In this document: piece by piece, positions 18,623-63,358 of the stretch | Numbering within the stretch: the first letter of the stretch is position 1 | How the letters are laid out: the number at the start of each line of letters is the position of its first letter | Source of the DNA: a virus | Taxonomy: Duplodnaviria > Caudoviricetes | IMG/VR virus record: IMGVR_UViG_3300030109_004835 | Location: 1 to 63,358 of that record | DNA length: 63,358 bases | Reading direction: 5' to 3' (one strand) | Translations under genes and position numbers: made by a program | Notes under the pieces: generated by a model | Databases searched by the model: none | What the model was told of the DNA's origin: nothing | What the model saw: the letters and a program-made list of their open reading frames with translations, nothing else

Positions 18623-20383
18623 ATGGATACATACGCACTGGACTACGAGTCCTACTACGACAAGACCTGCTCAATTAAGAAGCTAGGCCCGCTTGGTTAT
18701 TTTTCACATCCTGACTTTGACGCATACATGGTGTCAGTTGTTGGGGACAACGGATATGAGTTTGTTGGGCACCCTAAAGACTTTGATTGGAGTCTACTTG
18801 AGGGCAACAGGGTGCTATCTCATAACGCCTCTTTTGATGAAACCCTCTACTTGTTTGGTGTAGAAAAAGGGTGGTGGCCCTCCGTGGACTTTGCTGAATG
18901 GCACTGCACAGCAGACATGGCAGCGGCTTGCGGCCTGCCCCGCTCGCTTAAAAACGCCACAGCAGAAGCTTATGGTCTTGAGGTCTCTAAAACCACACGA
19001 GACAACATGGCGGCTAAGAGGTGGGAAAACATGTCTGATGAATTCCAGCAAGAGGTAAGCAAATACGCCCTGAAAGATTCAGAGCTGTGTTTGAAGCTTT
19101 GGCAAGACTATCAGGACAAATGGCCAGACCACGAGAAGGTCATAAGTTTAACTAACCGGAGGATTGTTCAGAGAGGGCTGCCGATGGATACAGATTTACT
19201 GAAGGAACAACTAGAGACTATAAATCAAAGGTTGTTTGAAGCCGAGTCGAACATCCCTTGGGCGGGCGAAAGACCCCTACTTAGTCGCGCCGCTTTTGAT
19301 GAGGAGTGCGTTAAACATGGGATAGAGCCTCCTAAGTCTTTAGCACAGACAGACTTGGATACTCAAGAATGGTTAAGGCAGTACGGCTACAAATATAAGT
19401 GGATCGAATCGGTTACTAACTGGCGTCGTATAAATGCCATAAAGAAAAAACTGGAGTCGTTTGACTACGCTACTTTACCAGATAGCCGTTACTATGGGGG
19501 GCTTATGTATTGGGGTGGGCACACGGGGCGGTTCTCCGGCAGCGGTGGTAATTTAAACTTACAAAACCTCCCTCGCGATGAGATGTTTGGAGTAAACCTC
19601 CGCCACATGATTTGTGCGCCGAAAGGCAGGAAGTTGGTTGTCGTTGACCTGTCTCAAATTGAGGTGCGGACTTTGTGTTGGTTAGCTGAGGATAAAGCTA
19701 CCCTACATGAGATTGCCAACACTGATGACATATACGAAGCGTTCGCTATCAGGATGGGGATGTGGGACAAAGACTCAGGGTCTTTGAAGGATAAAGACCC
19801 TAAGCGGAGGCATAAAGTAAAAGCTATTGTTTTAGGTTGTGGTTACGGCGCAGGAGCCAAGAAATTCTCTGAGATGTATGACATGCCCGAAGAGGAAGCT
19901 AAAGCAGCCGTTGACCTCTACCGAAACAGGCTATCTGCTATCCCTAAATTCTGGAGGAAGATCAACAACAACCTGAGATCTTGCTATAGCGCGGTTATGC
20001 CTTACGAGGTCGCGCTGCCCTCAGGCCGAAGAATAAAGTATGGACGAACTAAGCTGGTAAGGCAGAACGGGCGGATTGGTCATGAGGCCATTGTGAGCAG
20101 AAATGGAAAACGTTTGCCGATGAAGCTGTGGGGTGGGGTTGTAGCAGAAAATCTGTCACAAGGTCTCGCCAGAGACATATTCTCAGATATGCTAGTAAGG
20201 CTGGAGGACAATGGCATAGAGTTAATTTTTCATGTGCATGATGAAGTAATCATCGAGTGCGATGAAAACCACGCTGATGAAGTTCTCAGTAAAACAATCA
20301 ACATCATGTCTACGCCCCCAGCGTGGATACCTGACATACCCTTGGCCGCAGAAGGCCAAACCCTTACGCATTATCAAAAATGA
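18623..20383 (+). CDS. polA: DNA polymerase family A (3'-5' exo + pol; Leu762 type)
   Basis: LDYES, HNASFD, TGRFSG..NLQN, DLSQIEVR, KAIVLGCGYG, HVHDE. Confidence 0.95.
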   Translation: MDTYALDYESYYDKTCSIKKLGPLGYFSHPDFDAYMVSVVGDNGYEFVGHPKDFDWSLLEGNRVLSHNASFDETLYLFGVEKGWWPSVDFAEWHCTADMAAACGLPRSLKNATAEAYGLEVSKTTRDNMAAKRWENMSDEFQQEVSKYALKDSELCLKLWQDYQDKWPDHEKVISLTNRRIVQRGLPMDTDLLKEQLETINQRLFEAESNIPWAGERPLLSRAAFDEECVKHGIEPPKSLAQTDLDTQEWLRQYGYKYKWIESVTNWRRINAIKKKLESFDYATLPDSRYYGGLMYWGGHTGRFSGSGGNLNLQNLPRDEMFGVNLRHMICAPKGRKLVVVDLSQIEVRTLCWLAEDKATLHEIANTDDIYEAFAIRMGMWDKDSGSLKDKDPKRRHKVKAIVLGCGYGAGAKKFSEMYDMPEEEAKAAVDLYRNRLSAIPKFWRKINNNLRSCYSAVMPYEVALPSGRRIKYGRTKLVRQNGRIGHEAIVSRNGKRLPMKLWGGVVAENLSQGLARDIFSDMLVRLEDNGIELIFHVHDEVIIECDENHADEVLSKTINIMSTPPAWIPDIPLAAEGQTLTHYQK

Positions 20384-49329: not shown

Positions 49330-49519
49330 TACGCAGCGAATCCCGAAATTGAGCATTTGTCAAATTTTTTCACAGAACACACCACACACATACAGCGTGT
49401 GGGAAAAAAATGCCCCCCACCCCCGTGGCGTGGGTCATGATTCATGGATCACGATTCAGGGTGCGGGATTCTGATGCAACGTTTCATGGGAAAACGTGCC
49501 GGTTGCTCCCTTTCCATGT

Positions 49520-50143
49520 ATGGCTGAAACCATACTGAAGAAAAAGGATAGCTCCTCTATTGTTGAGGAGACCTCGCAGTTCACTGAAGCTGAAAAGAAG
49601 GCTATCAAGTCCATTGCCTCACGGGGCGGTAAGATAGTGGACGAACTAGCATTTGAACGTTACAAGGTCCGCCAGCGCGGAGAGTGTGACTATCTGCTTT
49701 GTGCTCATTATCTGAGAGACGCTTCTGGCGCCGTGCTCACGGGTCTGATTGCCGCTTCTAATCCTAAGGTTCCCTTTGCGGGGATCGCCATGGAGCGGAC
49801 GAAAGGCAATCCCAAGGCCCCTGACTTTAGCAAGGTGGGGACTTCCCGTGAGATGGCAATGGCCATCTCACTGGCAAAGGAGAACTCTTCTGTTGAAGGT
49901 CCAAAGGATCTGAAGGAGAAGGACGCTCTGAAGTTCATCACCGACATCAAGTCAGGGATTAAGCCGAAAGGGAAGAAGGCCTCAGATAAGGCTCCCCCCG
50001 TTGCGGAAATCCGCGCTCTGATCGTCAATTTCCAAGATCAGCTGAGCAGCATGGACATTGCGGAACTGTGGTCGCTCTTGAAGTCTATTTCTGATAACCG
50101 GAAAGCCGATAAAAAAGCTTCTGAGAAGACCGCCAAGGCCTAA
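49520..50143 (+). CDS. Hypothetical early protein
   Basis: Likely ATG MAETIL at 49520; followed by tandem terminators. Confidence 0.65.
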   Translation: MAETILKKKDSSSIVEETSQFTEAEKKAIKSIASRGGKIVDELAFERYKVRQRGECDYLLCAHYLRDASGAVLTGLIAASNPKVPFAGIAMERTKGNPKAPDFSKVGTSREMAMAISLAKENSSVEGPKDLKEKDALKFITDIKSGIKPKGKKASDKAPPVAEIRALIVNFQDQLSSMDIAELWSLLKSISDNRKADKKASEKTAKA

Positions 50144-50154
50144 CCCCTAACCCT

Positions 50155-50229
50155 TCCCCCCTTACCCTGAAAATGGGTAAGGGGGGATTTTTGTGCCCGC
50201 GTTCCCGCATATGGGGGCGCGGGCTTTTT
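50155..50229 (+). terminator. Two tandem Rho-independent terminators
   Basis: TCCCCCCTTACCC/GGGTAAGGGGGGA+T5 and GCCCGCG.../CGCGGGC+T5. Confidence 0.8.
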
Positions 50230-50238
50230 CGTTTTAAC

Positions 50239-50457
50239 CCGCGTGCCAGTCCGCGTGCCAGTCCGCGTGTCAGATCTCATAAAACGTTTTACCACAATCC
50301 CTGATCCATGATTCCCGATCCCTGATTCAGGATCCACAGATCCTATAAAACGTTTCACGAGAATAACCCTCGTCCACACTAACCCTCGTCCGCGCATTAT
50401 ATCCCAACTACGAATATCAACCCTGATGGTAACACTCGTCCAAAATAGCCCTCGTCC
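50239..50457. repeat. Non-coding direct-repeat cluster (origin/iteron-like)
   Basis: 3x CCGCGTGCCAGT-like, 7-bp GATCC/GATTC array, 4x TAACCCTCGTCC-like. Confidence 0.75.
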
Positions 50458-50493
50458 ACGCCTATAACTCACTGAAAATAAATTAGTTACCTA

Positions 50494-50533
50494 AAAGAAA
50501 AGTATTGACAAAACACTATATTTATGTTATACT
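50494..50533 (+). promoter_or_regulatory. Strong early sigma70 promoter
   Basis: AAAGAAAAGTA-TTGACA-17-TATACT. Confidence 0.85.
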
Positions 50534-50542
50534 TCTTATACA

Positions 50543-51307
50543 GTGAGAGAACACCCTGAAACAAAAGCAAAAGCGTTGGCGAACGAGCCGATCCAACGAC
50601 TGTTGGATTCCGGTAAAACGTTTCACGCAAAACATAACAAGCTCCCTTCCCCTTCCAAGCGGGACGGTGATTATGTTGAACTCCTACCCTACACCCCCAA
50701 GCCCCCGTCACAAGGGCCAAGGCGCGGGGGTCTCACCCCACAGCAAAAGTGGCAACGATATGCCAACCTGCTCCTGAGGAGCAAGGCAGCCGCTAGGCGG
50801 TATTACGAAAAGTATAGCGAGGACATCAATTCTATCCGGCTCACCCCCAACGAGGTTTACCCCAATGCTCCTGTTGAGAAGATAGAAATCCCCGACCCCG
50901 CTGCTGTATACCGCCATGCCTTGGAGATGTGGCACGCCTTGTGTCGCAGACGGCGGGACATCAAGCAAGAGGGTGACAAGATACTGGCAAAGCGTGGAGG
51001 GTTTAAACGTTTCATGCAATACTGTGAACAGCACCCTGATGTTTATGAGGTTGAAGACGGCAAGCTCATGGGGATACGCCCCGTCCCTGATCAGCCCGTC
51101 GAGCCAGAGGGAACGCGAACCCCGCCCCCTACAAACGAGCAAGCTGGCAAAGACTCAATCCGCAAAGCCCAGAGCTTGTCCACTATCGACAAGCGCATGG
51201 CAGCAGAGCGCCAGAAGATTTCCAAGGATGACAAGCCGCGCCCTGTGATGCGGCACCATGTTGATGCTAACCCTTGGCTCTATGCCAAGCACGCAAGAAA
51301 CAAATGA
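50543..51307 (+). CDS. Hypothetical early protein
   Basis: 254 aa; GTG 9 nt after the -10 box. Confidence 0.6.
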   Translation: MREHPETKAKALANEPIQRLLDSGKTFHAKHNKLPSPSKRDGDYVELLPYTPKPPSQGPRRGGLTPQQKWQRYANLLLRSKAAARRYYEKYSEDINSIRLTPNEVYPNAPVEKIEIPDPAAVYRHALEMWHALCRRRRDIKQEGDKILAKRGGFKRFMQYCEQHPDVYEVEDGKLMGIRPVPDQPVEPEGTRTPPPTNEQAGKDSIRKAQSLSTIDKRMAAERQKISKDDKPRPVMRHHVDANPWLYAKHARNK

Positions 51308-51477
51308 AACAAAGTAAAATAGCACGGCAAGAACGTGCAGACAAAAGACAAGCAGACCGTGATGCGCGGACTGATTCGGCCCAGCTCAAGAGACTGGATA
51401 AGATTAACGGCAAGAACAAAGGCGCAAAGAAAGAGCGTGCCCGTTTAGCCAAACGCATATCGAACCCTGATTCCTGA
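51304..51477 (+). CDS. Small basic protein
   Basis: ATGA coupling (MKQSKI...). Confidence 0.55.
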   Translation: MKQSKIARQERADKRQADRDARTDSAQLKRLDKINGKNKGAKKERARLAKRISNPDS

Positions 51478-51480
51478 ACC

Positions 51481-51663
51481 ATGAGCCTTGAAGAACTAAT
51501 CAACAAGAAGTGGGACAAGGACGATCAGTCCAATCTGTCTATCGAGGAACGCAAGGCTGATGCTGTTGATCTCATCAGTAAGCCTAAGCCAAGGGTGCAA
51601 CCCGCACCCTTGGCCCCGTTCCGTGCAGCCCTTGACCAAGCATTCGAGAGGAAGAAGTCATGA
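51481..51663 (+). CDS. Hypothetical protein
   Basis: Fills early operon. Confidence 0.5.
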   Translation: MSLEELINKKWDKDDQSNLSIEERKADAVDLISKPKPRVQPAPLAPFRAALDQAFERKKS

Positions 51664-51938
51664 AGAAACTATTAGAAATCCAAACGGGAGAAGAACCACA
51701 AGGTTTGATACTGTTTGCTACCCAGAGAGAAGCCTCTCTCTTTGAAGCAAAAGAGCACCCTTGGGGGACTTATACGACGGGGTGGGTGACAGTCCGCTCC
51801 GATCAGGTCCGGCCAAGCCAGACCCACCGTAACGGTTTCCGATACACTGAAGCATACTTTGACGATGACCCAGATACTTACGATGAGTATGGGGTAAACA
51901 CAAAGAACTCGTTTAACACTCAAACGTTTGACAAGTAA
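51660..51938 (+). CDS. Hypothetical protein
   Basis: ATGA coupling. Confidence 0.55.
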   Translation: MKKLLEIQTGEEPQGLILFATQREASLFEAKEHPWGTYTTGWVTVRSDQVRPSQTHRNGFRYTEAYFDDDPDTYDEYGVNTKNSFNTQTFDK

Positions 51939-51939
51939 C

Positions 51940-52347
51940 ATGAGCGAACCGCAAACATATCGAAAGGTCGCAATACCCATGACAGAAGAACAAGCGTGTA
52001 AAACGTTTGCTTGTGAAATATGCACGGGATTCACTGAGGCCTATGAATACCTTATGGGATTCACAGACCTTGTGAAAACATATCCAGAAATGGATACCGC
52101 GTATCACAAAAGCCTCGACCTCGTTGCCCATCGAGGATGCGACGGTGAATGCTGGGAAGGAGCGACCATGTCCATAGTATGCCCATGCTGCAATGACAGA
52201 GTATACTTCGACTACTCCTGTTTCCTGCCTACCGAAATAGAATGCATGCACTGTGGCGCAGACCTCGTAAGTGGAGATCACGAGGCCCAGCTTGGCATAC
52301 GCAGGATCATCAAAGACCACAACGCTATGAGAATGCAATACAAGTAA
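51940..52347 (+). CDS. Cys-rich putative zinc-binding protein
   Basis: CEIC, CDGEC, CPCC, CMHC motifs. Confidence 0.55.
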   Translation: MSEPQTYRKVAIPMTEEQACKTFACEICTGFTEAYEYLMGFTDLVKTYPEMDTAYHKSLDLVAHRGCDGECWEGATMSIVCPCCNDRVYFDYSCFLPTEIECMHCGADLVSGDHEAQLGIRRIIKDHNAMRMQYK

Positions 52348-52366
52348 TCACCAAACAAACTGAAGT

Positions 52367-53023
52367 ATGAAACTAACATCAAGAATATGGGTAGTCACTG
52401 ACACCCACTTCTTCCACAAAGGAATCGTGAGACGGGGCGTTCGCCCTCCTGACCACAACGAACGGACAGCAGAAGCCCTCAGTAAACTGGGGCCTGACGA
52501 TATTCTCATTCACTTGGGAGACTTCGCCTTTGCTAAGAGTTCTACTGAAGCATGGCGCGATGGTATAGCTGCATCTGAAATCATGAACCGATGCCCAGCG
52601 CGGAGTAAGATCCTGCTGCTGGGTAACCATGACAACCAGCCTTACTCCTACTACATCCAGCACGGGTTTACTGCTGCAATGGAGACTATGACACTGGAGT
52701 ATGGGGGTCAGAATATCTTATTCAGTCACCACCCCATGAGACGTTTAAGCTGGGGACCGTGTTTGGATCTTCCTGATGGCATCGACCTTAACATTCACGG
52801 CCACCTGCATCTTCGCAACCACCGTGATGAGGAGTCAGCATGGCAGGATGAGAAAGACGAACGCTGGTTCCTGCTCTCGCATGAGGCAGTGGGCTACCGA
52901 CCTGTTCTGCTCGACGATATATTAGAGGGTAAGATCCCCCGTGTTCTCAAGGAAGATGCCATGAAGTATGTGCATGATCCTGAGAATGTCCGCTTTCACG
53001 ACAAGACAAACAACCAAAACTGA
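52367..53023 (+). CDS. Calcineurin-like metallophosphoesterase
   Basis: DTHFFH, HLGDF, GNHD, SHHP, HGHLH. Confidence 0.9.
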   Translation: MKLTSRIWVVTDTHFFHKGIVRRGVRPPDHNERTAEALSKLGPDDILIHLGDFAFAKSSTEAWRDGIAASEIMNRCPARSKILLLGNHDNQPYSYYIQHGFTAAMETMTLEYGGQNILFSHHPMRRLSWGPCLDLPDGIDLNIHGHLHLRNHRDEESAWQDEKDERWFLLSHEAVGYRPVLLDDILEGKIPRVLKEDAMKYVHDPENVRFHDKTNNQN

Positions 53024-53111
53024 AACATGAAATGATCCTGACCATCACACTCCTTACTCTCTTGTCCATATGGGCGTGGAGAATCAAGTAACGCACAACA
53101 AGCAACACACA

Positions 53112-53498
53112 ATGAAAAGCAAACAACTGGACCTTGGTCCTAAGCGCAAGTCCCCCAACAAACGTAGGGAGAGAAACCACGTAGTGCATCTCAGGGATCC
53201 TGACCTGCACGCGAAGATAAAGAAGAAAGAACCCGTGAACCTGACTCCTGTATGGAATCCTTTTGATCCTTTACCTGAGGATAAAAAGAAGACCACAATC
53301 AAACGTCGTATGGGAAAGATCATTGATGTCAGGCAGTGGATGCCCGCTATAAAACGTTTGGCGAAGCAGCAGCTACCACTTATCGAGCTACGGGAAGAAC
53401 TACGTAGAGAACGGGAGGCTAATGAAAAGCTGACCGCCGAATTAAAAAGACAAGATGAGATTATCCTGAAGCATGAAGATAACAAAAAATCCCTTTAA
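53112..53498 (+). CDS. Hypothetical basic coiled-coil protein
   Basis: Likely ATG MKSKQL after A/C-rich leader. Confidence 0.5.
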   Translation: MKSKQLDLGPKRKSPNKRRERNHVVHLRDPDLHAKIKKKEPVNLTPVWNPFDPLPEDKKKTTIKRRMGKIIDVRQWMPAIKRLAKQQLPLIELREELRREREANEKLTAELKRQDEIILKHEDNKKSL

Positions 53499-53829
53499 AG
53501 GGAAAGTAGCGACGACCGTCATTGATCTATCAGACAAGAACGGTAAGCGGACTGGTGTACAATATCACGATACCATTATCGTGGAGTTCACCGACCATGA
53601 GGTGAAGCTAAACGCCACAGACCCCGACGGGGAATCGTGGCTCACGCCTACAACTAAGTTACGTATGAACCAAATATCAGAACAATATGATCTTGGCTTC
53701 AATGTATATCAGAAGTATGGGAGCTGGTGGGTTGAACCCAAGAGCCCCGCTCACAGTAGCAAACCTCAGAAACGTCGTGGGACGGGGCCAATGATGCCCT
53801 TCGTCGATAACATGACTATAAAAAGATAG
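53473..53829 (+). CDS. Hypothetical early protein
   Basis: VQYHDTIIV...W.T.TTK.RMNQ...F.VYQK...W pattern typical of small early phage genes. Confidence 0.6.
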   Translation: MKITKNPFKGKVATTVIDLSDKNGKRTGVQYHDTIIVEFTDHEVKLNATDPDGESWLTPTTKLRMNQISEQYDLGFNVYQKYGSWWVEPKSPAHSSKPQKRRGTGPMMPFVDNMTIKR

Positions 53830-53850
53830 TTAATATATCTTTCGATCTAT

Positions 53851-53890
53851 AAAGAAAAGTATTGACAATATATACTTTATTTGGTATAAT
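53851..53890 (+). promoter_or_regulatory. Consensus sigma70 promoter
   Basis: AAAGAAAAGTA-TTGACA-17-TATAAT; first 18 bp identical to 50494-50511. Confidence 0.9.
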
Positions 53891-53952
53891 ATAGTTATGG
53901 TTAGGAAAGACCCTAATCAAAACTACAAGTTAGCAGTAAAACGTTTTACTGC

Positions 53953-54882
53953 ATGAAACAAAAACACACAGACAAAGTGCAAACTACAACACCACAAAGA
54001 CAGACCGTCCGCAAGACGGCAGAGCAGCAGAGGGAACAAAAGCAAGAGCCTAGTGGCCTCAGCATCGGAGCAACAATTAACATCTCCGCTTCATCCTTTG
54101 ATAAGAGAAGGAAGAACAAAGCAGGTGAACGGGAATATGCTGAGAAGCATGGGACTGACATTGATGCGAACGAGATGACTACTAAGCTCATCAAGAAGGA
54201 ATACCTCAAGGAGATCACCAGCCATGTGGCTAAAACAAGGGAGGGTATCAAGCATTACTCTTCCCCTTGGGATGACGGTGGTAATCGGCGGGTAGCTCCG
54301 CTCATGATCCCTAAGATGCAGGAATACATCACAAAACGTAGGATGGGATGGCAGGAGAAAGTAGACGCCTTCCTCGACAAATGGCCTGAGATCAGAAGGA
54401 ACTCTGAGAAAAGGCTGAACGGGGACTTCGCGAAGTATGCTCACCTGTATCCGGCAGAAGATGATCGTGATGGAGTTCTCCGAAACTTCAACCTCAGCAT
54501 TACCTTTGGCCCGTTAGGTGGAGCAGAGGATCTCCCTCATGACTTACGTGAAATGTGGGAAGAGGAAGATGAGCGCCGTCGTGCAGAGATCTCGCAAGAT
54601 CTTCGTAACAGGTTCTACGACAAGCTCACTCATCTCTCAAAGCGGTGCGCCGTAGCAGGTGATGAAGGCACGGCATTCCGCAAGTCCAATCTGGAGAAAG
54701 TTGTGGAACTCTGCGACATCCTACCATCAATGATGATTGACGGTGACATGAAGCTGCAAGGAGCTATTGACCAAGCACGGCATATGTTGCGGGGCATAGA
54801 CTCAGACAGTATCAAGTCATCCAAGATCGTGGCGACTGACATCAGTCAGCAAGCCAAGGAGATTGCTAATTCTCTTATGTAA
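53953..54882 (+). CDS. DUF3150-like helical protein
   Basis: PWDDGG.R, FLDKW, YP motifs; lies upstream of AAA and vWA genes. Confidence 0.6.
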   Translation: MKQKHTDKVQTTTPQRQTVRKTAEQQREQKQEPSGLSIGATINISASSFDKRRKNKAGEREYAEKHGTDIDANEMTTKLIKKEYLKEITSHVAKTREGIKHYSSPWDDGGNRRVAPLMIPKMQEYITKRRMGWQEKVDAFLDKWPEIRRNSEKRLNGDFAKYAHLYPAEDDRDGVLRNFNLSITFGPLGGAEDLPHDLREMWEEEDERRRAEISQDLRNRFYDKLTHLSKRCAVAGDEGTAFRKSNLEKVVELCDILPSMMIDGDMKLQGAIDQARHMLRGIDSDSIKSSKIVATDISQQAKEIANSLM

Positions 54883-54947
54883 CAAACAGTCGGGGGCCGC
54901 GCATCCGTTGATCACGCGAGAAGAAAATAGAAAACAAAACAAAAGAT

Positions 54948-56030
54948 ATGTCACATCACATAGAAATCACATCAGACGATATGCCCGCAGTACTGGACCG
55001 CAACCACAAGGCAGGGAATAAAAAGGCCCCCGTCTTTCAGTCCTTCTACGGCTTGGGTAAATCAATGCAAGCCGCGTTGTGGGCCGCTCGAAAGGAAGCT
55101 CATTACATCGACTATCGTGGAGCCTATAAAACGTTTAACGACGTTCGTGGGTTCGGGATCCCCAATCATGAGGAGCAGCGTATGAAGTTCTACGCTGACG
55201 AAGACCTCGACTTCAAAGATGGCGCAATGAATGTCCTCCATCTGGAGGAGATTGGTTTGGTCAGTCCCCAGACTCAGAAGGTTCTCATGCAGATGCTTCT
55301 GGAGAAGCGGGTGGGTAAGTTCTTCTTCCCTGAAGATACCTTCGTCATGGGGTCAACCAACATGCTGGCCCACAAGACAGGGGTTGAGCGTTGGCTGGCG
55401 GCATTGGCTGACAGGGTAGCGTTCTATCGTGTACGTCCTGACTTTGACTCCTATCAGAACTACCTGATGAATCATGGTAAGACGCCATACCTCTTGGCAT
55501 TCCTGAACTCCAACCCTTCTGCTCCGTATGATTTCAAGATCAAGGAGTGGGACGGTGAGTCTAACTTACCTACCTTCAGGTCATTCTCCCGACTGGACGA
55601 ACTGACTGACAGTTATGATGACATATCAGAAGCCGTGGCCGATCCTCTGTTCCGTGCTCATGCTACGTCTTGTGTCGGTCCTAAGTATGGAGAAATGTAC
55701 ACATCGTTCCTCAAGCTCACCAGCAGAGTGGGTGATGTGAACAAGATGATCGAGGATGCTGATCGTTGCAGTATCCCGCATGAGCCAGACATCAAGTGGC
55801 TTGTTGCATGTCGATCCATTGCATTGTCAAACAAGGATAACATCGACAAGGTTCTGGTCTTGGCGCATCGCCTGACAGATCCCAGCATGAACAATCCTAG
55901 TAATCTTGACATGATGGAGTCCTTCGTTGGCAACTCCATTGGACGAATCAAGAAAGACTTGCTAAAGACCCAAGCCCTCGTAAAGTGGCGGGTCAAGCAT
56001 GCCGACGAACTCTCAGGAAAGATCAGCTAA
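54948..56030 (+). CDS. MoxR-like AAA+ ATPase
   Basis: SFYGLGKS, VLHLEE, Q..LMQ, GSTN, ALADR. Confidence 0.8.
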   Translation: MSHHIEITSDDMPAVLDRNHKAGNKKAPVFQSFYGLGKSMQAALWAARKEAHYIDYRGAYKTFNDVRGFGIPNHEEQRMKFYADEDLDFKDGAMNVLHLEEIGLVSPQTQKVLMQMLLEKRVGKFFFPEDTFVMGSTNMLAHKTGVERWLAALADRVAFYRVRPDFDSYQNYLMNHGKTPYLLAFLNSNPSAPYDFKIKEWDGESNLPTFRSFSRLDELTDSYDDISEAVADPLFRAHATSCVGPKYGEMYTSFLKLTSRVGDVNKMIEDADRCSIPHEPDIKWLVACRSIALSNKDNIDKVLVLAHRLTDPSMNNPSNLDMMESFVGNSIGRIKKDLLKTQALVKWRVKHADELSGKIS

Positions 56031-56257
56031 TCTGATTCACTGTATCCTGAATCACGCATCCTGCCCCATGATTATGTGGTCAGCTACCGACCCACTTGTA
56101 GCCGCATTCTATTTCTGGCTACGAGATGTAGGCAGCACCCACATTGTCGGGGCTGGGAGCGGGAACGTTAAACTATCTAAGGAAGCGGATGAGTTACTCC
56201 GCGACCATAGAGACACGGTAAAACGTTTCACTGAAATACACAGAAAAGAAAATAAAC

Positions 56258-57532
56258 ATGAAAGCAAAAGACAAGATCGCGAAAGCGAAGAACATCATCG
56301 CGAATCATCACGACATTCTCATGCCAGCACTAGCTGCGCTAGAGGATATTATTGTTGATGATCCGAGTCTCACAGCATGTACAAATGGGGAACATATTAG
56401 ATATGGTGCCCAGTTTGTGGACACGCTGAATATCCAACAGACAGTTGGACTAATCGTCCATGAGGTATTGCATCCTCTACTGGATCACCTCACAAGATTG
56501 GCTACTCAGTTTCAGACTGACGCCCATCTCACCAACGTCGGTGCGGACTACGAGATCAATAACTTCGTAACCATATACAACGAGGAGGCTACCTTCCCCA
56601 TTGTATTACCACCCGAAGCTCATGTTGATGTCGAGAAGTATGGCACTCTGGCAGCAGAGGTTATCATCAGGAAACTCTTCGAGGATACCCCGAAACCGCC
56701 ACCGCCACCGCCGACTAACCCCAATCCCGATGGGGAGTGTGACAACCCCACTGATGGGGAGGGTGATCAGGACTCGCCTCAAGAAGGGGACAAGGAAGGC
56801 AAAGGTTCCGGCAACGGGCAACCGCAACGTCAGCCCTACTCCTCTGGTGAATTTGAACCTGCTAAAAGTTCTGCCAAGGCGAAGGAGCTATCCGACAAGT
56901 GGAAGGAGATCTTGACCAGCACTATCCAGACTGCGAAGTTACGTGGTAAGGGTGGGGGTAAGTTCATCGAGAAGCTTGGAGAACTACTAGAGCCTCCCCT
57001 TGATCTGGATGCCCTGCTGGATAAGTACACCACAGAGTTCTGTTTGTCAGATGAATCAATCCGTGCAGACAAACGCTACTTAGCCTATCACGATATCTGT
57101 ATCACAGGTATGGAAGACGAGCAGCATGGCACGTTGGTATTCGTCAAGGATACTAGCGGTAGTATAAACAAAGATATCCTAGAGTCTGTTGTCAGCATTG
57201 TGCAGGGAGCTTCCACCAAGCTCCGACCACGACGCCTTATCGTGATGGATGTAGACGCCGAGGTGCAACACGTTGAAGAGTTCGGGCCTCACGATGAGAT
57301 CCCCGCAGAAGCTAAAGGCAGAGGAGGGACAGACTTCCGACCTGCGTTTGACTTCATCGAAAACAATCTTGAGGAAGCGCGAGTCGTTATCTACTTCACT
57401 GATGGATACGGCGTGTTCCCTGAAGAAGAACCAAGTATCCCGACCTTGTGGGTGACATACGGTCTGGAAGATGATGGCTTCCCTTTTGGTCAGGTAGTCA
57501 ACATGAATGAACTAATTGACCAAGCAGTATAA
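56258..57532 (+). CDS. DUF2201-type metallopeptidase-like + vWA protein
   Basis: TACTNG, HEVLH, DYEIN; MIDAS DTSGS, GRGGTDF, YFTDGYG. Confidence 0.85.
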   Translation: MKAKDKIAKAKNIIANHHDILMPALAALEDIIVDDPSLTACTNGEHIRYGAQFVDTLNIQQTVGLIVHEVLHPLLDHLTRLATQFQTDAHLTNVGADYEINNFVTIYNEEATFPIVLPPEAHVDVEKYGTLAAEVIIRKLFEDTPKPPPPPPTNPNPDGECDNPTDGEGDQDSPQEGDKEGKGSGNGQPQRQPYSSGEFEPAKSSAKAKELSDKWKEILTSTIQTAKLRGKGGGKFIEKLGELLEPPLDLDALLDKYTTEFCLSDESIRADKRYLAYHDICITGMEDEQHGTLVFVKDTSGSINKDILESVVSIVQGASTKLRPRRLIVMDVDAEVQHVEEFGPHDEIPAEAKGRGGTDFRPAFDFIENNLEEARVVIYFTDGYGVFPEEEPSIPTLWVTYGLEDDGFPFGQVVNMNELIDQAV

Positions 57533-57550
57533 AATAAAAAGTAAAACGAA

Positions 57551-58678
57551 ATGAAGATACAAACATTCTTTGAGAAGTTGGCGGACGATCCATACGGCAG
57601 ATACGCATGTTGTGCGTTTCGCAGTATTGATGGTGTAATATTCGTGAGACAGGAATCAGGTACATTCGTTGATGGTGTAGAAGACCCCAACGATTTCCCA
57701 GTTTCTGTTATGCTAGAAGAAGGTGATGCTCGTTACCATGCCCTTGAGCCATATTGGATAATGGGGGCGGTTATAGAAGACGATGTGCTTCTCACGCACA
57801 TTGCATTCGACGAGCACCGAACGGTCAGACAAGCCTATTGGAATTCCAACTACCGTCAGAAATGGTGCAAGTCAATTGCCGGTGATCGGGTCCATGTTCA
57901 AGTTAGGGGTGGGCAACCGCCTATCCTAAAACCTCATACTCGTAAGCTCAGAAACCGGTACGGTATGATCCGAGATACTCTCCTGACTTGTATGGAGCCT
58001 AACATATATGAGCGGGCTAGGACTTTGAGCGGGAGTGTCCCGACCAAAGAAGACCTTGACCTCCTCATGCCTGTTCGCGAATGGTGGGACTGGGCTTGGG
58101 CTTATGCCATTACTGATGCAGCGAAACGTTTGACAGACTGTAACAACAAAATCGCTTCTAGTCTTACAGCAGTGTCATTCGATAACCTGACTAACCTAGA
58201 TAGTAAGCTCACGGATATCCGCGAGAAAGTATCTGCTTCAGACTTCGAGGCAGCTAAATCCTTGTTCGACCCTTTGAAAGAGCAGGTGAGTAAACTAGCC
58301 GAGCTGATACACAACGCCGAACACAAAATAAGTAACGCTAGTTTCGGGATATCCGTAGCCAAGATACCATATCAACTCTATCGACTACTCGACAGACTTG
58401 ATAAGAAAATAACCTACCTCTTCGATGACGAGTGGTACAGCGCTATGGCTATCCACACGAAGTCAGAGGAAAGTCTCCTTGAAGGGTTTGACTCGTTGGC
58501 AGAGCTGTTCGACAAGATTGGTCTGCCAATATCTGCCCCGTATGGTGTGCAGGTATGCACCGAAAACATTGGCCAGCTCGCGGTCTTGAACGACACGATC
58601 AGGGAAGTCATACTGACCCCACCTCGCGACGAGGTTAATTCTGAAGAATCAAAAGAGCCTGAAACCCTACTAGTATAA
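57551..58678 (+). CDS. Hypothetical protein
   Basis: 375-aa ORF in operon. Confidence 0.65.
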   Translation: MKIQTFFEKLADDPYGRYACCAFRSIDGVIFVRQESGTFVDGVEDPNDFPVSVMLEEGDARYHALEPYWIMGAVIEDDVLLTHIAFDEHRTVRQAYWNSNYRQKWCKSIAGDRVHVQVRGGQPPILKPHTRKLRNRYGMIRDTLLTCMEPNIYERARTLSGSVPTKEDLDLLMPVREWWDWAWAYAITDAAKRLTDCNNKIASSLTAVSFDNLTNLDSKLTDIREKVSASDFEAAKSLFDPLKEQVSKLAELIHNAEHKISNASFGISVAKIPYQLYRLLDRLDKKITYLFDDEWYSAMAIHTKSEESLLEGFDSLAELFDKIGLPISAPYGVQVCTENIGQLAVLNDTIREVILTPPRDEVNSEESKEPETLLV

Positions 58679-58679
58679 A

Positions 58680-58931
58680 GTGAAGACAACTGCCGAAATC
58701 CAAATAGGAGATGCCTTGGTTGAAATAAAAAGCCGACGAGAAGACAACGCCTCAGGCTGGTCAATCATAGTGTTTACGCCAACTGGGAGTTTCCGGTGTG
58801 TGCGACCGCACATATCCGTAGCACTCAACAGATTCGTCGATGCTATTATATCCTCAGTAGATAAAAGGTTCCTTGAGCATGAGTCAGTGGTTCAGGAAAC
58901 AAAAGATACCATACTGTCCATCATTGATTAG
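58680..58931 (+). CDS. Hypothetical protein
   Basis: Abuts neighbours. Confidence 0.5.
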   Translation: MKTTAEIQIGDALVEIKSRREDNASGWSIIVFTPTGSFRCVRPHISVALNRFVDAIISSVDKRFLEHESVVQETKDTILSIID

Positions 58932-59186
58932 ATGAGACATTACGTACAGGTAATAGAACCAATGGGGTTACCCATGTTTGTTGATGGTATGTTTGTTTCA
59001 GATGAACTGGTCGAGTACCGCGCCCATCCGATTGTTGATGGTGTTATACGAGAAAGGATGGACATAACAGATGGTGAGCCTCTTATGTTGGCTATAATAC
59101 ATCTGCTCCGGTCTACATATAATGCCAGCAATCAGATGGACGAAGGCCACAGCTCTGATCCACATGGACGTTGCAAACAAAACTAA
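58932..59186 (+). CDS. Hypothetical protein
   Basis: Abuts upstream stop. Confidence 0.5.
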   Translation: MRHYVQVIEPMGLPMFVDGMFVSDELVEYRAHPIVDGVIRERMDITDGEPLMLAIIHLLRSTYNASNQMDEGHSSDPHGRCKQN

Positions 59187-59487
59187 GGCACTACGCCAAG
59201 TCTTGATGCGGTATAGCCGCAAAGACTGGGACTGGATATGTGACTATGGTACCCGAACCAAATGGTGCAAGCTAGGTCTGCTAATCGCTAAACGCGAATT
59301 AGATATGACATGGCGGGAAGCTGGAGCCTGTTTCGGTTTAAAGCCGGAACAGGCTTCCAGAGCCGCACGTAAGTTTGAGGATAAGGTATTTGAGGAACCT
59401 GCTCTTTTCGATATGATGACTAATCTATCGTTTCGAGTGCTTGAATCCTTGGGCCAGACAAGCGGATCTCATCAAGGGCGATCCTAA
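59122..59487 (+). CDS. HTH protein (DnaA C-terminal-like); start uncertain
   Basis: LIAKRELDMTWREAGACFGLKPEQASRAARKFE. Confidence 0.5.
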   Translation: MPAIRWTKATALIHMDVANKTKALRQVLMRYSRKDWDWICDYGTRTKWCKLGLLIAKRELDMTWREAGACFGLKPEQASRAARKFEDKVFEEPALFDMMTNLSFRVLESLGQTSGSHQGRS

Positions 59488-62400
59488 GTCTTTGCCTACC
59501 TACCGCGCCATCAGGGGTTAAGCCTATTACTTGTTCTATAAATGGTGTTGGGAACACATCTCTTTCCCTCCGCCCATTCACAATGTAATTCTGTCTGCGC
59601 TTGCCCATGCCTAGAGACTTCTCACTCATCACTCTTCTAGCTTGCCGTGGTGTTAGCCCCAGCCCTTGTGCTCCCAAGTAGGTAGTGTAGATACGCTGGT
59701 CTACTTCGCGCCTCACCTTCATCCATTTGCGGATAGACCTGCGAATCTGTCCTTCGGACAACTGCCCTTTTGATTTGAGTATGTTGCGTAGTGAAGAAGC
59801 ACGGTTGCGTTCGTCCCGCGCTCTCTGTAGGTATCGGAGAAAGTGGGTCTCAGGATCATACTTGTATGGCTTAACGGGGACTATCTCCCCTATCAGAAGG
59901 GCCTTTGCTGATTTAGCAGGGTCAGGAGATGCTCCTGCATACAGAGCCTGATAAGCGGCTTGTGCTAATTTAGTAGGTGTCCTAGGGGCGTAAGCCTCTG
60001 AAAGGACGTAGCCTAACTTCTTAGCAAAGCCCACAGCCCCCTCTCCTTTTTCCGCTATCGGGCCTCCTGTGTCAGACCTCACATTCCTAGACACATCCAC
60101 TACAGAACTAAGGAATATATTCTCATCCATGAATGTCTGGGCCACGCTTCCGAATGCTTCTTCAAACCCTCTTTCAACATTACCTCTATACGCATGCTCC
60201 GAGAAACGGAGTAGAGGATCAACGCTGATAGCAAAAGGATTAACAAAAGTCATGTCCCATGAGCTAAGCTCATTACTCTTTAGACCTAATAGGGACTGAG
60301 GATTATACCAGAAAGTATTATACCTCTTATACTCTGGCGACGACCCTCGTAGAAGTTCATCTTCTTCTTCGCCAATTCCCACCAAGTGAGCGAGTAATGT
60401 TGGGAGACCAGCACTCACTCCAAGGATAACAGTGGACACTCCACTTATGCGCCTTACGCCTCTACTCCTTACGACAGGGTTGGTGCTTTTTAGCTCTTGT
60501 TTAGCCAGCTTGAAAGTGTTTTCTAGTATGCGGAAGACTTCGGTTTTGAACCGCAAGAACGGGGTAACGACAGAAGCGTACTCGCTCCTACCTATCTTCT
60601 CAACTAGGTGGTAAGCGTCTGCATACGACTGTGATGTACGACGAACCTTTTGGGCCGCAAGATACTTAAGGTCGTAATCGGAGAGGCTCCGGTATCCTGC
60701 TGGCGCGTTCGCATCAATAGAATCTGTGTTGTTATCTATGTCCCACTGCTTTGCTTTCAACAGGTTCTCTTTCTCCAGCTCGTAGTACCCGATCTTGTAG
60801 AAGGCATCAACCGATTGTGAAAGAGCCTGAAGTCTTTCCATGACAGGCTTTACTACTTTGTCTGAAAGTCCCTTCGATTTCTCAACGATCTTATTTAAAG
60901 ATTCAATTTCTTTGAGAACAGAAGACACATTCTTAGGCTTCTTGAGCAGGTCTCTAATCAAAGAAGAATAAAGATCCTGCCCGATAACATTCAATCCCGT
61001 CAGCTCTGCATAATATTCGTCGAAAGCCTTGGGGTCTTTTAGTGAGCGACCAATATCTGTGGACCTTGTAGCTATTTTAGCCATAGACACAGGGCCAAAA
61101 CCTTGGGCTGGTGCGAAGAAGAACAAGTTACCGAGAACGTTTCTCAGGTAAAACGTTACAGAGCCTAAAGTTTTAGCGGTAAGAGCGGCCCCCGTTAAGA
61201 GCCTAAGGCCTTCACCGAACGACGCGAGTTTCTGTTTAGATGTAGACAAGTTAGACTCTGCAACATCTGGCGAGTACATACGTTTCAGATCATCAAACAT
61301 ATCCTCACGGATATAGTAGTTATATGTTTCGTCGTATGTTGACTCCAGCTCTGTGGTCGCTTGCACTTTATCCCCATAAACGTATGCCTCTCCTGTCCGC
61401 ATATTGACGTAAGACTCTGGGTCTAGTTCGGGACGGTTAGTTAGCTGGGCATGGGTGAATACGAATGCGTCTTCATCGGTGGCACTTTTCGGAGCCCCTA
61501 GTTCGGCTATGTTATTGAAGTAAGCCTGTCTAGCTGTCATCTCTGTGACAACAGTAAGTGAGCGTGCCAGATTATTTATACCTGCTTCAGGGCCATAGAC
61601 GCCCATTAGTTTCTGCAATGGAGGCGGTACTTGTTGCCTTCGTCTCAGGTTATTTAGCAAAGACCTGCCTACTCCTTTTGGTAGACGATACTCTTCGCTC
61701 TTCGCCCGTTTCTCCATAGCCTTCAGATAGGTAGACATCATAGCATGGATCGGATCCCGACCTGTATCTGAAGCCTGCTCTAGCTCTTGCTTTGATTTTT
61801 CCAACGACTCTTCTTCAGTCATTGACTCCCCTTCATTTCTTGCCTTCGCACGGATTTTCTTAGCTTGGGTCTTGATCCACTGCCGACGCATATACTCGTA
61901 GGCTTCAGTGAACGCTTCCGTTGTCTTATCCGACATGATCCTATCTCTGAATCCTTCCTCTTCAAAGACCCTGTACTGGCGTGTGAGATAAACACCCACT
62001 TGGCTTTCTACTTTGGCCATTACTTTACCTTCAAGGCCGAAGGTCTTTTTCATTACTAAACTAAAGGCGTCTAGTAACAAACGTAGCTCTAATACAGAGT
62101 CAGCTAAATCAGGAGCTATTTGTCGGATGTTCTCCCGCGCGGCATCAATATCCTTGCGGACTTCTTCTTGTAGCCTCTCGCGTTCTTTACGCATCGGGGC
62201 GACCACTAACTCTCTGTATTTAGCTTTGATGTTTTCTCTAGTGAACCCAGCAGCTTCTGCTTCGCCCGCATCAGTTCTTGCTTTTAAGTCTTTCCTCCAT
62301 GACCAGTAAGACTCCCTAAGATCCTGCCTGAACTCAGGGTCTACTGTTACATTTTCGCTACTGCCCGTTGCTCTCGAAATGAGCGCGTCGTCTATTTGAG

Positions 62401-63358
62401 GATATCTTTCCCGTACTTTTTGGAAAGCGGCAAGCTTGGCATTGCTAAGTTTCTCAGACGCGTTTATAAATGCCCGCTCTTTTTTCTTTATCTCCGTAAT
62501 TCTAGGATCCGTGTCCCCAAACTTCAGAGCGCTCATACCTGTATAGCCTTGGTATTTGCCCCTAGAAAACACGCCTAGAGGCAGCTCCAAGGTATCAAAC
62601 ATTCCTTGGAACCTAGCGATCACTTGCTCTGGGGTAGTGTCATCACCGATGTCGTTAAGTGAATTATCGAAACGACGGGTTATAACATCAAACCCAGCAT
62701 TAGGGTTACGCGGGTCAAAGGGCATGTGTCTGGCGCGAGCGGCACCTCCATTGGCCAAGAACCTAAGTTCATGAGCCATGCGGTTTATCATAACCGCCAA
62801 CTCTGGGTTATCTTTCTTGAGGTTATATCGAGCAGACATCCTGCGGAATACCCCTGCGATGTACCGGAGCATTATGCGAAGGGTGCTTGGGCTGGACTCG
62901 TAAAACGCAACATCCTCTTGAGTAGTATACCCGCGAGTCACCCTCTTTAAGATGCTGAGTAACTTCTCGCCCATGACTTGCTGCATAGTCTCTAAATCAT
63001 TGTCAGCAATACCTTGTTTAAGGGCGGCGCGTAAATCAGGGTTGCGGGTATACTCGTCTACAAACTCGTTGAATTCTGTCGCACTAAACGTTTCAATCAG
63101 AGTGTTCAGTTCCGCGAGGGGGATTGCTTTGAACTCTGCTATGTGCCCCAGCTCCTCAGCAATAATAGAATCCATGATGCCTTTAAGGTGCAACTCGTTC
63201 TCCACTATTGCACTCTTAGCAAACAAGCCTCGCACTAGATTCTCTCGAACTACATAAATGACGGGTACTCTCTCCCCGTCTTTCTCTACGACTACAGAAG
63301 CGAAGGCTTCGTCAGACCTACCTGAAAAAATACTGGGAACTTCATCTGCCGTTTCAAC
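59420..63358 (-). CDS. Giant putative internal virion/ejection protein, C-terminal part
   Basis: Frame open to window end and continuous with 1-7694; helical C-terminal region (FYLRNVLGN, PFLRFKTE). Confidence 0.85.
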   Translation of the reverse strand, partial: VETADEVPSIFSGRSDEAFASVVVEKDGERVPVIYVVRENLVRGLFAKSAIVENELHLKGIMDSIIAEELGHIAEFKAIPLAELNTLIETFSATEFNEFVDEYTRNPDLRAALKQGIADNDLETMQQVMGEKLLSILKRVTRGYTTQEDVAFYESSPSTLRIMLRYIAGVFRRMSARYNLKKDNPELAVMINRMAHELRFLANGGAARARHMPFDPRNPNAGFDVITRRFDNSLNDIGDDTTPEQVIARFQGMFDTLELPLGVFSRGKYQGYTGMSALKFGDTDPRITEIKKKERAFINASEKLSNAKLAAFQKVRERYPQIDDALISRATGSSENVTVDPEFRQDLRESYWSWRKDLKARTDAGEAEAAGFTRENIKAKYRELVVAPMRKERERLQEEVRKDIDAARENIRQIAPDLADSVLELRLLLDAFSLVMKKTFGLEGKVMAKVESQVGVYLTRQYRVFEEEGFRDRIMSDKTTEAFTEAYEYMRRQWIKTQAKKIRAKARNEGESMTEEESLEKSKQELEQASDTGRDPIHAMMSTYLKAMEKRAKSEEYRLPKGVGRSLLNNLRRRQQVPPPLQKLMGVYGPEAGINNLARSLTVVTEMTARQAYFNNIAELGAPKSATDEDAFVFTHAQLTNRPELDPESYVNMRTGEAYVYGDKVQATTELESTYDETYNYYIREDMFDDLKRMYSPDVAESNLSTSKQKLASFGEGLRLLTGAALTAKTLGSVTFYLRNVLGNLFFFAPAQGFGPVSMAKIATRSTDIGRSLKDPKAFDEYYAELTGLNVIGQDLYSSLIRDLLKKPKNVSSVLKEIESLNKIVEKSKGLSDKVVKPVMERLQALSQSVDAFYKIGYYELEKENLLKAKQWDIDNNTDSIDANAPAGYRSLSDYDLKYLAAQKVRRTSQSYADAYHLVEKIGRSEYASVVTPFLRFKTEVFRILENTFKLAKQELKSTNPVVRSRGVRRISGVSTVILGVSAGLPTLLAHLVGIGEEEDELLRGSSPEYKRYNTFWYNPQSLLGLKSNELSSWDMTFVNPFAISVDPLLRFSEHAYRGNVERGFEEAFGSVAQTFMDENIFLSSVVDVSRNVRSDTGGPIAEKGEGAVGFAKKLGYVLSEAYAPRTPTKLAQAAYQALYAGASPDPAKSAKALLIGEIVPVKPYKYDPETHFLRYLQRARDERNRASSLRNILKSKGQLSEGQIRRSIRKWMKVRREVDQRIYTTYLGAQGLGLTPRQARRVMSEKSLGMGKRRQNYIVNGRRERDVFPTPFIEQVIGLTPDGAVGRQRLRIALDEIRLSGPRIQALETID
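62871..63358. repeat. Imperfect terminal direct repeat, copy 2
   Basis: Matches 1-488. Confidence 0.95.

Follow-up and report, generated by a model that had tools for sequence, protein, structure and literature searches.

A clustered palindrome in the early gene block of a novel marine phage as a putative operator for a lineage-specific phage protein

The palindromic motif AAACGTTT is concentrated in the early-type gene block of IMG/VR virus record IMGVR_UViG_3300030109_004835, a novel marine phage. The whole record of 63,358 bases was analyzed and is referred to here as the window. Eleven copies of the motif lie in the block, where they occur ahead of a promoter, shortly downstream of two promoters, at gene junctions, and inside genes. 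Most of the related phages carry either the same palindrome or a different one, uniform within the genome, at the same places. From the comparison of these sequences, the copies are proposed to be duplex-DNA operators for a lineage-specific, phage-encoded protein that would act on an early operon transcribed by the host, and a probability of about 0.5 is assigned to this proposal. The best candidate for the protein that reads the sites is the 107-residue product of the gene at the end of the block.

Number, shape, and placement of the sites

An earlier note on this DNA, prepared from the letters alone, had listed 11 clustered copies of AAACGTTT, and an exact count recovered every one of them, at 50282, 50348, 50616, 51005, 51922, 52001, 53352, 53939, 55129, 56221, and 58124. 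Eight of the 11 have the form TAAAACGTTT, as had been reported. The statement that only three copies exist elsewhere was in error: four are present, at 5887, 11436 (overlooked), 20108, and 63086 (misgiven as 63026). The window therefore holds 15 copies, compared with 1.46 expected (standard deviation 1.09, largest value 4), and none of 100 dinucleotide shuffles reached 15. The first 488 bases of the record match the last 488 bases at 95% identity, from which a unique length of ~62,870 bases and a circular or concatemeric assembly follow. The copy at 63086 falls in this redundant end, and 14 copies thus remain per ~62,870 unique bases. The clustering noticed earlier is borne out, since 11 of the 14 unique copies occupy 12.5% of the genome (binomial p = 2.9e-8) and the distribution is not uniform. 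No other 8-mer of the genome is as over-represented as AAACGTTT, which reaches 12.4 times the expectation from composition.

Seven copies are located wholly within open reading frames (ORFs) of the block. Shuffling of synonymous codons gave a mean of 0.43 such copies (largest value 4; 0 of 2000 shuffles reached 7), and shuffling of codon order gave a mean of 0.14. The intragenic copies occupy ORF frames 0 and 1, in agreement with the earlier remark that the frames differ.

The full site is a 14-bp palindrome, GTnAAACGTTTnAC, with AAACGTTT as its invariant core. The flanks of the block copies are symmetric, with T at −2 in 10 of the 11 copies, A at +9 in 9 of 11, and C at +10 in 9 of 11, and the same flank pattern is found over 55 distinct sites from nine genomes. 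When at least 10 of the 12 specified bases of this extended pattern were required, 16 hits were obtained in the window, compared with 2.9 in shuffles. Eleven of these hits are in the block, and the core is exact in every one of them; copies in the block whose core is altered all score below 10 of 12. What is conserved in the copies is, on this evidence, the sequence rather than a structure.

All 11 clustered copies lie inside the early-type block of small ORFs on the + strand (49520..59487; 49.4–59.5 kb), which was delimited using the ORF map, PHROGs, and Pfam. The genome has just two near-perfect sigma-70 promoters that carry a TG extension, and both belong to this block. Promoter P1 (50505..50533, + strand) consists of TTGACA, a 17-nt spacer, and TATACT with the TG extension; its start is predicted at ~50540, and it is conserved in the close relative G002. 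Promoter P2 (53862..53890, + strand) consists of TTGACA, a 17-nt spacer, and TATAAT (12/12 matches) with the TG extension, and its start is predicted at ~53897. The promoters are known from consensus matches that are conserved in relatives, and the transcript starts were inferred from the −10 hexamers. The sequence AGAAAAGTATTGACA occurs upstream of both P1 and P2.

P1 comes last in a non-coding control region (50144..50542, + strand) that was recognized from the sequence and a terminator scan. Two intrinsic terminators from that scan (50155–50187 and 50195–50224) are followed directly by about three units of a GC-rich tandem repeat with the 12-bp unit GTCCGCGTGYCA (~50238–50273). Copy 1 (50279..50292, ATAAAACGTTTTAC) and copy 2 (50345..50358, ATAAAACGTTTCAC) come next; both are non-coding and are placed ~258 and ~192 bp, respectively, upstream of the predicted start of P1. 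At the place of copy 2, G002 has three copies arranged as 23-bp tandem repeats. Between these copies and P1 there are four iterons of the CCTCGTCCAC type (50367–50461); G002 has three in tandem.

Copy 3 (50613..50626, GTAAAACGTTTCAC), at ~+76 of P1, falls within the 5′ portion of the first ORF (50543–51307). An inverted repeat with a 7-bp stem (50591..50608, + strand) lies directly ahead of it within the same ORF; G002 retains the stem but has a different 4-nt loop, which encodes two other amino acids. This ORF starts with GTG ~9 nt after the −10 hexamer, and its mRNA may therefore be nearly leaderless. Copy 4 (51005..51012), farther on in the same ORF, codes for FKRF and is kept in G002 despite differing synonymous flanks. 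Copy 5 (51919..51932, CTCAAACGTTTGAC) is at a gene junction, 10 nt before the ATG at 51940, and forms a cassette boundary. Copy 6 (52001..52008) is inside ORF 51940–52347 and is not kept in the one relative that could be compared, L136. Copy 7 (53352..53359) is inside ORF 53070–53498, within codons for PAIKRLA.

Copy 8 (53933..53952) is perfectly palindromic over 20 bp. It lies at ~+42 of P2, within the leader of a gene whose most likely start codon is the GTG at 53977. Copy 9 (55129..55136) is inside the ATPase gene near codon 61 (IKRL), and copy 10 (56216..56233) is in a 227-nt gap, 29 nt before the ATG at 56258. Copy 11 (58124..58131) is inside ORF 57551–58678 and is kept in none of five relatives, which are 1–3 bases off. 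Outside the block, the copy at 20108..20115 in the DNA polymerase gene is retained in G002 as a 14-bp palindrome.

Clusters of the palindrome were also seen in unrelated records. An exact scan of viral contigs for the 14-mer returned at least 122 loci, among which single hits are approximately what chance would give by a rough estimate of the size of the collection. Three unrelated records among these loci contain clusters: G003, G004, and G005 (2 copies). In G003 (66% GC) four copies occur in 2.5 kb (L128, 2407–4957), and in G004 (34% GC) five core copies, four of them as the 14-mer, occur between small genes (L129, 4299–8442). The palindrome is extended to 16 bp in G003 and G004, as GGTTAAACGTTTAACC and AGTTAAACGTTTAACT. 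No protein common to the window and G003, G004, or G005 was detected by tblastx or blastp. The clusters may be coincidental, 14-bp palindromes numbering only 16,384.

Relatives with the same palindrome and with other palindromes

The close relatives consist of two viral contigs and six metagenome contigs, whose ATPase genes are 82–88% identical to that of the window. All six copies of G001 are within its first 4.7 kb, and 17 of the 20 unique copies of G002 are in the homologous block. Most copies in G001 and G002 are the perfect 14-mer GTTAAACGTTTAAC, whose TAA is the stop codon of the gene upstream; the next ATG lies 4–14 nt on. Seven of the G002 copies are spread over a 5-kb stretch of early genes with no alignable counterpart in the window.

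Conservation in relatives, which the earlier note had named as a check, holds for a part of the sites and fails for the rest. The core is kept at the orthologous positions of 53939 (7/7), 55129 (8/8), 56221 (7/7), 51005 (1/1), and 20108 (1/1), and it is not kept at those of 53352 (0/6), 58124 (0/5), 52001 (0/1), 5887 (0/2), and 11436 (0/2). Copy 10 is a perfect 18-bp palindrome in G001, G002, L132, and L133, with a mismatch at the fifth position from the center in the window and in L134–L136. Sites may also shift: the G002 homologue of ORF 53070–53498 carries its copy ~33 codons further on than the window does, and four of the five other close relatives (G001, L133, L134/L135, and L136) have a copy in a context that matches this ORF. 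Kept, lost, and shifted copies together imply that the sites are maintained in number and neighborhood rather than at fixed positions. Selection apparently acts on the DNA of the copies.

An alignment of 26 ATPase homologues provided nine further loci at 50–58% identity. Two of these, L147 and L148, have the core of the window (GTCAAACGTTTGAC), five times in each locus; they share the position of copy 7, and copy 9 is absent from their ATPase genes. In g9 and g10 copy 9 is replaced by a copy ahead of the gene. Four of the nine loci have a different 16-bp palindrome at the same places. The palindrome of G009 is TGCAGTA-AA-TACTGCA, and all 12 of its copies fall within the first 5.9 kb of the 60.8-kb record. 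That of G010, TGTCATA-AA-TATGACA, is used by L144 as well; of its 16 copies in the 62.9-kb record of G010, 15 fall within the first 6.4 kb. L145 contains 13 copies of TGCATTA-nn-TAATGCA with AA, TT, or AT at the center. The complete records of G009 and G010 have 2 and 0 copies of AAACGTTT, respectively.

Where a palindrome is present, the layout is common to the clades: GC-rich tandem repeats, a palindrome array, other iterons, sigma-70 promoters, the palindrome, a leader, and the start codon. The control region of the window has the same layout as that of G002, and L142, L143, and L145 show it with other repeat sequences. The tandem arrays have a 23-bp period in G002 and 24–50 bp between copies in the other clades. 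P2 is retained in all six aligned relatives, and similar promoters are found in g9, g10, g11, g12, and L145. The palindrome is located at approximately +35 to +77 of each sigma-70 promoter, and the promoters share their initial transcribed sequence. As in the window, g9 (at 794) and g10 (at 633) have their own palindrome in the first ORF past P1; in L145 the first copy past the promoter is just ahead of the start codon and not within the ORF. A leader of the AACTGAAATACA type separates palindrome and start codon, and palindromes also precede the same genes across clades. One uniform palindrome per genome that differs between close relatives suggests a phage-encoded, sequence-specific reader and argues against both a host factor and a purely structural signal.

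A strand-specific center of the palindrome in the relatives (AA versus TT) was considered and rejected, because L145 has both in one array in addition to an AT center. A box of the CTGAAATACA type is present between palindrome and start codon in several clades (53940–53980 and 56229–56257 in the window; leaders of L142, L143, and L145).

Homology between relatives starts or stops at copies. Positions 2168–2380 of G002 match 1–212 of L133, and 2401–2842 of G002 match 363–799 of L136. Positions 1833–2240 of L133 match 502–909 of L134, beginning at the copy itself. At one copy in G002 and L133, the 42 nt around the site are the sole shared stretch and lie between unrelated genes. In Logan contigs from two other marine runs, X8 joins 51937 to 52366 and X7 joins 51936 to 52377, the joints being filled by 9 and 11 other letters, respectively, so that exactly the gene at 51940–52347, next to copy 5, is missing there. 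The interval 51937–52366 is, as read from these joints, a natural cassette insertion or deletion, and the alignments indicate that relatives swap early gene cassettes exactly at the sites.

Operator model, candidate reader, and alternatives

In the proposed operator model, host RNA polymerase would transcribe the early block from the two strong sigma-70 promoters. A phage protein would bind the GTnAAACGTTTnAC operators with two-fold symmetry and with a specificity that differs by lineage. The operators would be those upstream of P1, 40–80 bp past each promoter, at gene junctions, and inside genes. Once made, the protein would occupy these sites and could block or modulate initiation by looping from the upstream copies to the downstream site, or block or modulate elongation as a roadblock. 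The expected outcome would be early expression that is timed or shut off throughout the operon. The sites, being short and identical, would incidentally provide patches of homology for the exchange of early cassettes. That the reader is encoded by the phage follows from a specificity bound to lineage.

The best candidate reader is the 107-residue product of 59164–59487 (+ strand), the last gene of the early block. Its AlphaFold2 model (predicted local distance difference test score, pLDDT, of 90.6) has the fold of DnaA domain IV. The best structural match is 3pvp_A (Z = 13.2; root-mean-square deviation 1.8 Å over 93 of 96 residues); the top six matches are all DnaA, and the next entry has a Z of 4.9. 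The modeled protein can thus be superposed, as a six-helix DNA-binding domain, on solved DnaA domain IV structures, although Pfam Bac_DnaA_C was not hit at an E value below 0.5. If this protein is the reader, two copies would be needed, one per half-site.

A homologue of the candidate is encoded at the same place in g2, g9, g10, g11, g12, L144, and L145. Genomes with the same palindrome have similar versions, 83% identical between the window and G002 (ATPase 88%) and 93% identical between g10 and L144. Genomes with different palindromes have dissimilar versions, 44% identical between g9 and L145 (ATPase 95%, other early proteins 68–91%) and 38% identical between g9 and g10 (ATPase 81%). The candidate evolves fast, and its gene closes the early block in all clades examined. 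A marine phage family in which a stand-alone DnaA-domain-IV-like protein serves as a retargetable reader, each lineage pairing its own version with its own palindrome, is a rather doubtful extension of the operator model. In that case the palindrome would serve as an array ahead of the early promoter, as a site 35–77 bp past every early promoter, and as punctuation between exchangeable early cassettes, and swaps of specificity would divide lytic phages that are otherwise almost the same into lineages blind to one another.

A second DNA-binding protein was excluded as the reader. The 200-residue product of 12328–12930 (+ strand), with an N-terminal helix-turn-helix, is the one clear protein of this type returned by the family scans and is probably the small terminase subunit; g9 and g10 have nearly the same helix-turn-helix in it despite their different palindromes. 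More than 540 relatives of this protein are present in public marine data, on contigs of 40–95 kb and often labeled "transposase-like", and it offers a handle for collecting the whole phage family.

Several observations weigh against the operator model or against the candidate reader. The sites never overlap the −35 and −10 hexamers. A repeated palindrome was not found in three of the nine distant loci, of which L149 and L150 span only ~1 kb upstream of the ATPase gene and L146 spans 10 kb. No RNA runs are listed among the public runs that hold 49400–59300. The candidate is only 33–39% identical between the window and g11/g12, and the recognition helix differs, though both use the AAACGTTT core. 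The first gene past P1 is equally divergent between g9 and L145 (40%). DnaA domain IV binds asymmetric boxes as a monomer. The targets of the candidate could instead be other lineage-specific repeats of the control region, among them the CCTCGTCCAC iterons, whose TCCACA part resembles the DnaA box consensus; an origin is a further possible role for these iterons. Finally, a plain operator model does not predict the hairpins of the 53939 family, which have energies of −9.3 to −13.7 kcal/mol.

These hairpins bear on the alternative that survives best, namely, that the element works in RNA, in leaders and intercistronic spacers of transcripts made by the host polymerase, as a short hairpin or single-stranded motif for a phage-specific RNA-binding protein, which could be an antiterminator similar to N acting at nut sites, a translational repressor, or an endoribonuclease that controls when early mRNA is used or decays. 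The location of the element at +35 to +77 of each sigma-70 promoter in every clade fits this possibility, as does its location 4–30 nt before start codons, the block genes having A-rich leaders without a Shine-Dalgarno sequence. The orthologues of 53939 always remain a perfect 20-bp palindrome, with arms TA/TA, TT/AA, or GC/GC that change together on both sides, and these three compensatory states all give stable folds. Pairing at the fifth position from the center is enriched, being of the Watson–Crick type in 24 of 55 distinct sites with three pair types. The sense strand has an AA center at the junction copies of g9 (6/7), g10 (9/9), and L145 (6/7). In addition, a basic, coiled-coil-like protein (53070–53498) was detected only in clades with AAACGTTT.

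The remaining data speak against an RNA hairpin as the general form of the element. For the common 14-mer the folding energy is a mere −1.2 to −1.8 kcal/mol, and most copies of the window are unpaired. Stable hairpins are confined to the 53939 family and some members of the 56221 family, other copies folding at −1.8 to 0 kcal/mol or staying unpaired. The intragenic copies are palindromic over only 8–10 bases and do not fold, yet they are conserved or gained, and the persistence of copies unable to form RNA hairpins favors reading at the level of DNA. Arm mismatches show no wobble bias, with G–T at 25 and A–C at 27. The center varies (AA, TT, and AT) even in one array, and the arms are uniform per genome rather than covarying by copy. 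The copies and arrays ahead of P1 are outside the transcript of that promoter, behind two terminators, and the terminator scan found none inside the operon that would need antitermination. The paired change of the arms at 53939 could have arisen by template-switch correction of palindromes. Overall, an element read in RNA is considered possible but unlikely.

The copies might also be promoters, possibly N4-like hairpins, for a phage RNA polymerase or a sigma-like factor, with one promoter per cassette. They are identical within a genome and different between related phages, as are the promoters of T7-group phages. Many are placed 4–14 nt before the start codons of consecutive genes, and the 3,714-residue protein of this phage has the size of the N4 virion RNA polymerase (vRNAP). 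This explanation is improbable, given that the element is downstream of strong, conserved host-type promoters, is a perfect palindrome without direction, and is intragenic in seven copies. No RNA polymerase was detected among the 61 ORFs using PHROGs, among 55 ORFs using Pfam, or in the giant protein using PHROGs, Pfam, a PDB sequence search, and motif patterns, all of which are sequence-level searches. The 3-nt loop, the GC-rich heptamer, and the three copies at one end that characterize N4 are all absent.

A role as recombination or DNA-handling signals, be it in cassette exchange or, close to a genome end, in packaging, replication, or entry of the DNA, would fit the breaks in homology at copies in several pairs, the two runs without the cassette 51940–52347, and the tandem arrays where four contigs end. 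Parallels for cassette exchange exist in the attC sites of integrons and the PeSL elements of T4-type phages. This role is nevertheless very unlikely. Any conserved junction element is expected to allow exchange at its short identical sites, and exchange need not be their function; neither the copies within conserved genes nor those at +42 and +76 of the promoters mark boundaries. The same PHROGs and Pfam scans gave no hit to integrase, recombinase, or repressor families. Assemblies commonly break in tandem repeats, and at its other end contig G009 stops inside the portal gene.

The earlier suggestion of binding sites for a dimeric phage or host protein, or of decoy or modification sites against host defense, is supported in part: a conserved 14-bp palindrome that other palindromes replace in relatives favors the phage protein. 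Host-protein, decoy, and modification sites are the least probable explanation of all, even though the central CG with AAA/TTT arms presumably resembles the operator core of the LacI/PurR type (LacI family) and the lack of GACGTC and CACGTG (0 copies in 62.9 kb; AACGTT 25, TACGTA 9) looks like avoidance of restriction sites by a phage under restriction pressure: relatives with 95% identical ATPases use unrelated palindromes at the same places, the two complete relatives have 2 and 0 AAACGTTT copies, no methyltransferase was found in the 61 ORFs, and a restriction target should be avoided rather than enriched.

Genome context and known systems

Megablast of 50000–58500 against 50,697 phage records gave no match, and the family A DNA polymerase shares no more than 27% identity with that of any phage in the collection. 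Parts of the stretch are present in 20 public runs from 13 studies, all labeled as marine or viral metagenomes. Relatives of the large terminase subunit (TerL) were found in metagenome-assembled genomes (MAGs) labeled Altibacter, Opitutae, and Blastopirellula; these labels are mutually inconsistent, and no host was therefore called. The 14-mer pattern had 0 matches in three MAGs with related phage contigs, which is uninformative since well under one match is expected by chance and the host link is doubtful.

The replication block (12.3–22.6 kb) is on the + strand, and the lysis and structural block (22.5–49.4 kb) is on the − strand. A further − strand block holds the large terminase gene and a continuous ORF for a 3,714-residue giant protein with a J-domain. 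This protein is obtained when two open-ended ORFs (1–7694 and 59420–63358, − strand) are joined once the 488-base redundant end is removed, and the J-domain (residues ~909–970) is its sole recognized part. Within the early block, PHROGs and Pfam identified a phosphoesterase (52367–53023, + strand). The block also encodes a MoxR-like ATPase (phrog_1297; 54948–56030, + strand) and a DUF2201 metallopeptidase/VWA-like protein (56258–57532, + strand), which are adjacent (54948–57532) and conserved in all clades. The phage appears to be lytic.

The repeats of the control region vary among the relatives. About five units of the GC-rich repeat are present in G002 (L002, 150–205), and L145 has 12–13 units of a 15-bp repeat at 1–200. 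The contigs G002, G009, G010, and G013 end in or beside the GC-rich repeat region, which may be an assembly effect, and G002 has an exact 373-bp terminal overlap that spans this region. Clusters of GATTCA-, TGAATC-, and GGATCC-type repeats occur in non-coding DNA at 49430–49475, 50295–50345, and 56030–56080, and similar strings are found in the control regions of relatives.

The window belongs to a phage family that is common in marine metagenomes and has no cultured member close enough to be found. The finding offers a testable regulatory code for its early genes that would be composed of host-type promoters, a lineage-specific palindrome, and a named candidate reader. Natural swaps of specificity between near-identical genomes would be suited to the study of joint change in a DNA-binding protein and its sites, and the sites mark where early accessory genes are exchanged.

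Other palindromic or repeated elements were compared with the sites. Integron attC sites are acted on by the tyrosine recombinase IntI and have core sites GTTRRRY and RYYYAAC around a folded central region, whereas the copies in the window mostly have GTA or ATA, not GTT, and no recombinase was found in the 61 ORFs. The DnaA box is the asymmetric 9-mer TTATCCACA. In a by-eye comparison, the half-sites GTTTnAC match it at no more than 5–8 of 9 positions, the +11 position is not conserved, and the CCTCGTCCAC iterons match better.

The N4 vRNAP promoters are described as hairpins whose 5–7 bp stem has both conserved and variable bases, with a 3-nt loop and a GC-rich heptamer centered at −11; three of them are present, at the left end (PMC4496689). 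The present sites share with them an invariant inner part and, at some copies, a variable paired outer stem, and a protein of ~3,700 residues is present. They differ from these promoters in being even-length, AT-rich palindromes with a CG center in 11–20 copies, and no polymerase was detected.

Lambdoid nut sites are boxB hairpins bound by N proteins, and each phage has two of them. The present element is likewise a phage-specific inverted repeat located tens of bases past host-type early promoters (+42 and +76) and varying between relatives. It is unlike nut sites in its 11–20 copies, its arrays ahead of P1, and its non-folding intragenic copies, and neither an N homologue nor internal terminators were found.

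The conserved inverted repeats (CIRs) of the Streptomyces phage phiC31 are operators of the c repressor. Both these and the present sites are multicopy inverted repeats of an early region, near promoters and between genes. The differences are an apparently lytic phage and a candidate reader with the fold of DnaA domain IV; no homologue of the c repressor turned up in the family scans, which included no direct comparison.

At the stoperators of Cluster A mycobacteriophages, a repressor of the L5 gp71 type stops elongation at many phage-specific sites in transcribed regions (PMC9283540). They are described as asymmetric and read by a monomer, as often located in short intergenic gaps away from promoter hexamers, and as differing between related phages (PMC9283540). 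The present sites are similar in having many copies within transcribed regions and a phage-specific sequence. Stoperators are asymmetric sites of ~13 bp with one orientation relative to transcription, whereas a symmetric palindrome of 8–20 bp is found here. They also belong to temperate phages and are distributed genome-wide, unlike the single block of the window with its arrays ahead of a promoter and no integrase or repressor family in the 61 ORFs. Judged by analogy, the proposed system resembles in kind both the stoperators and the inverted repeats of phiC31.

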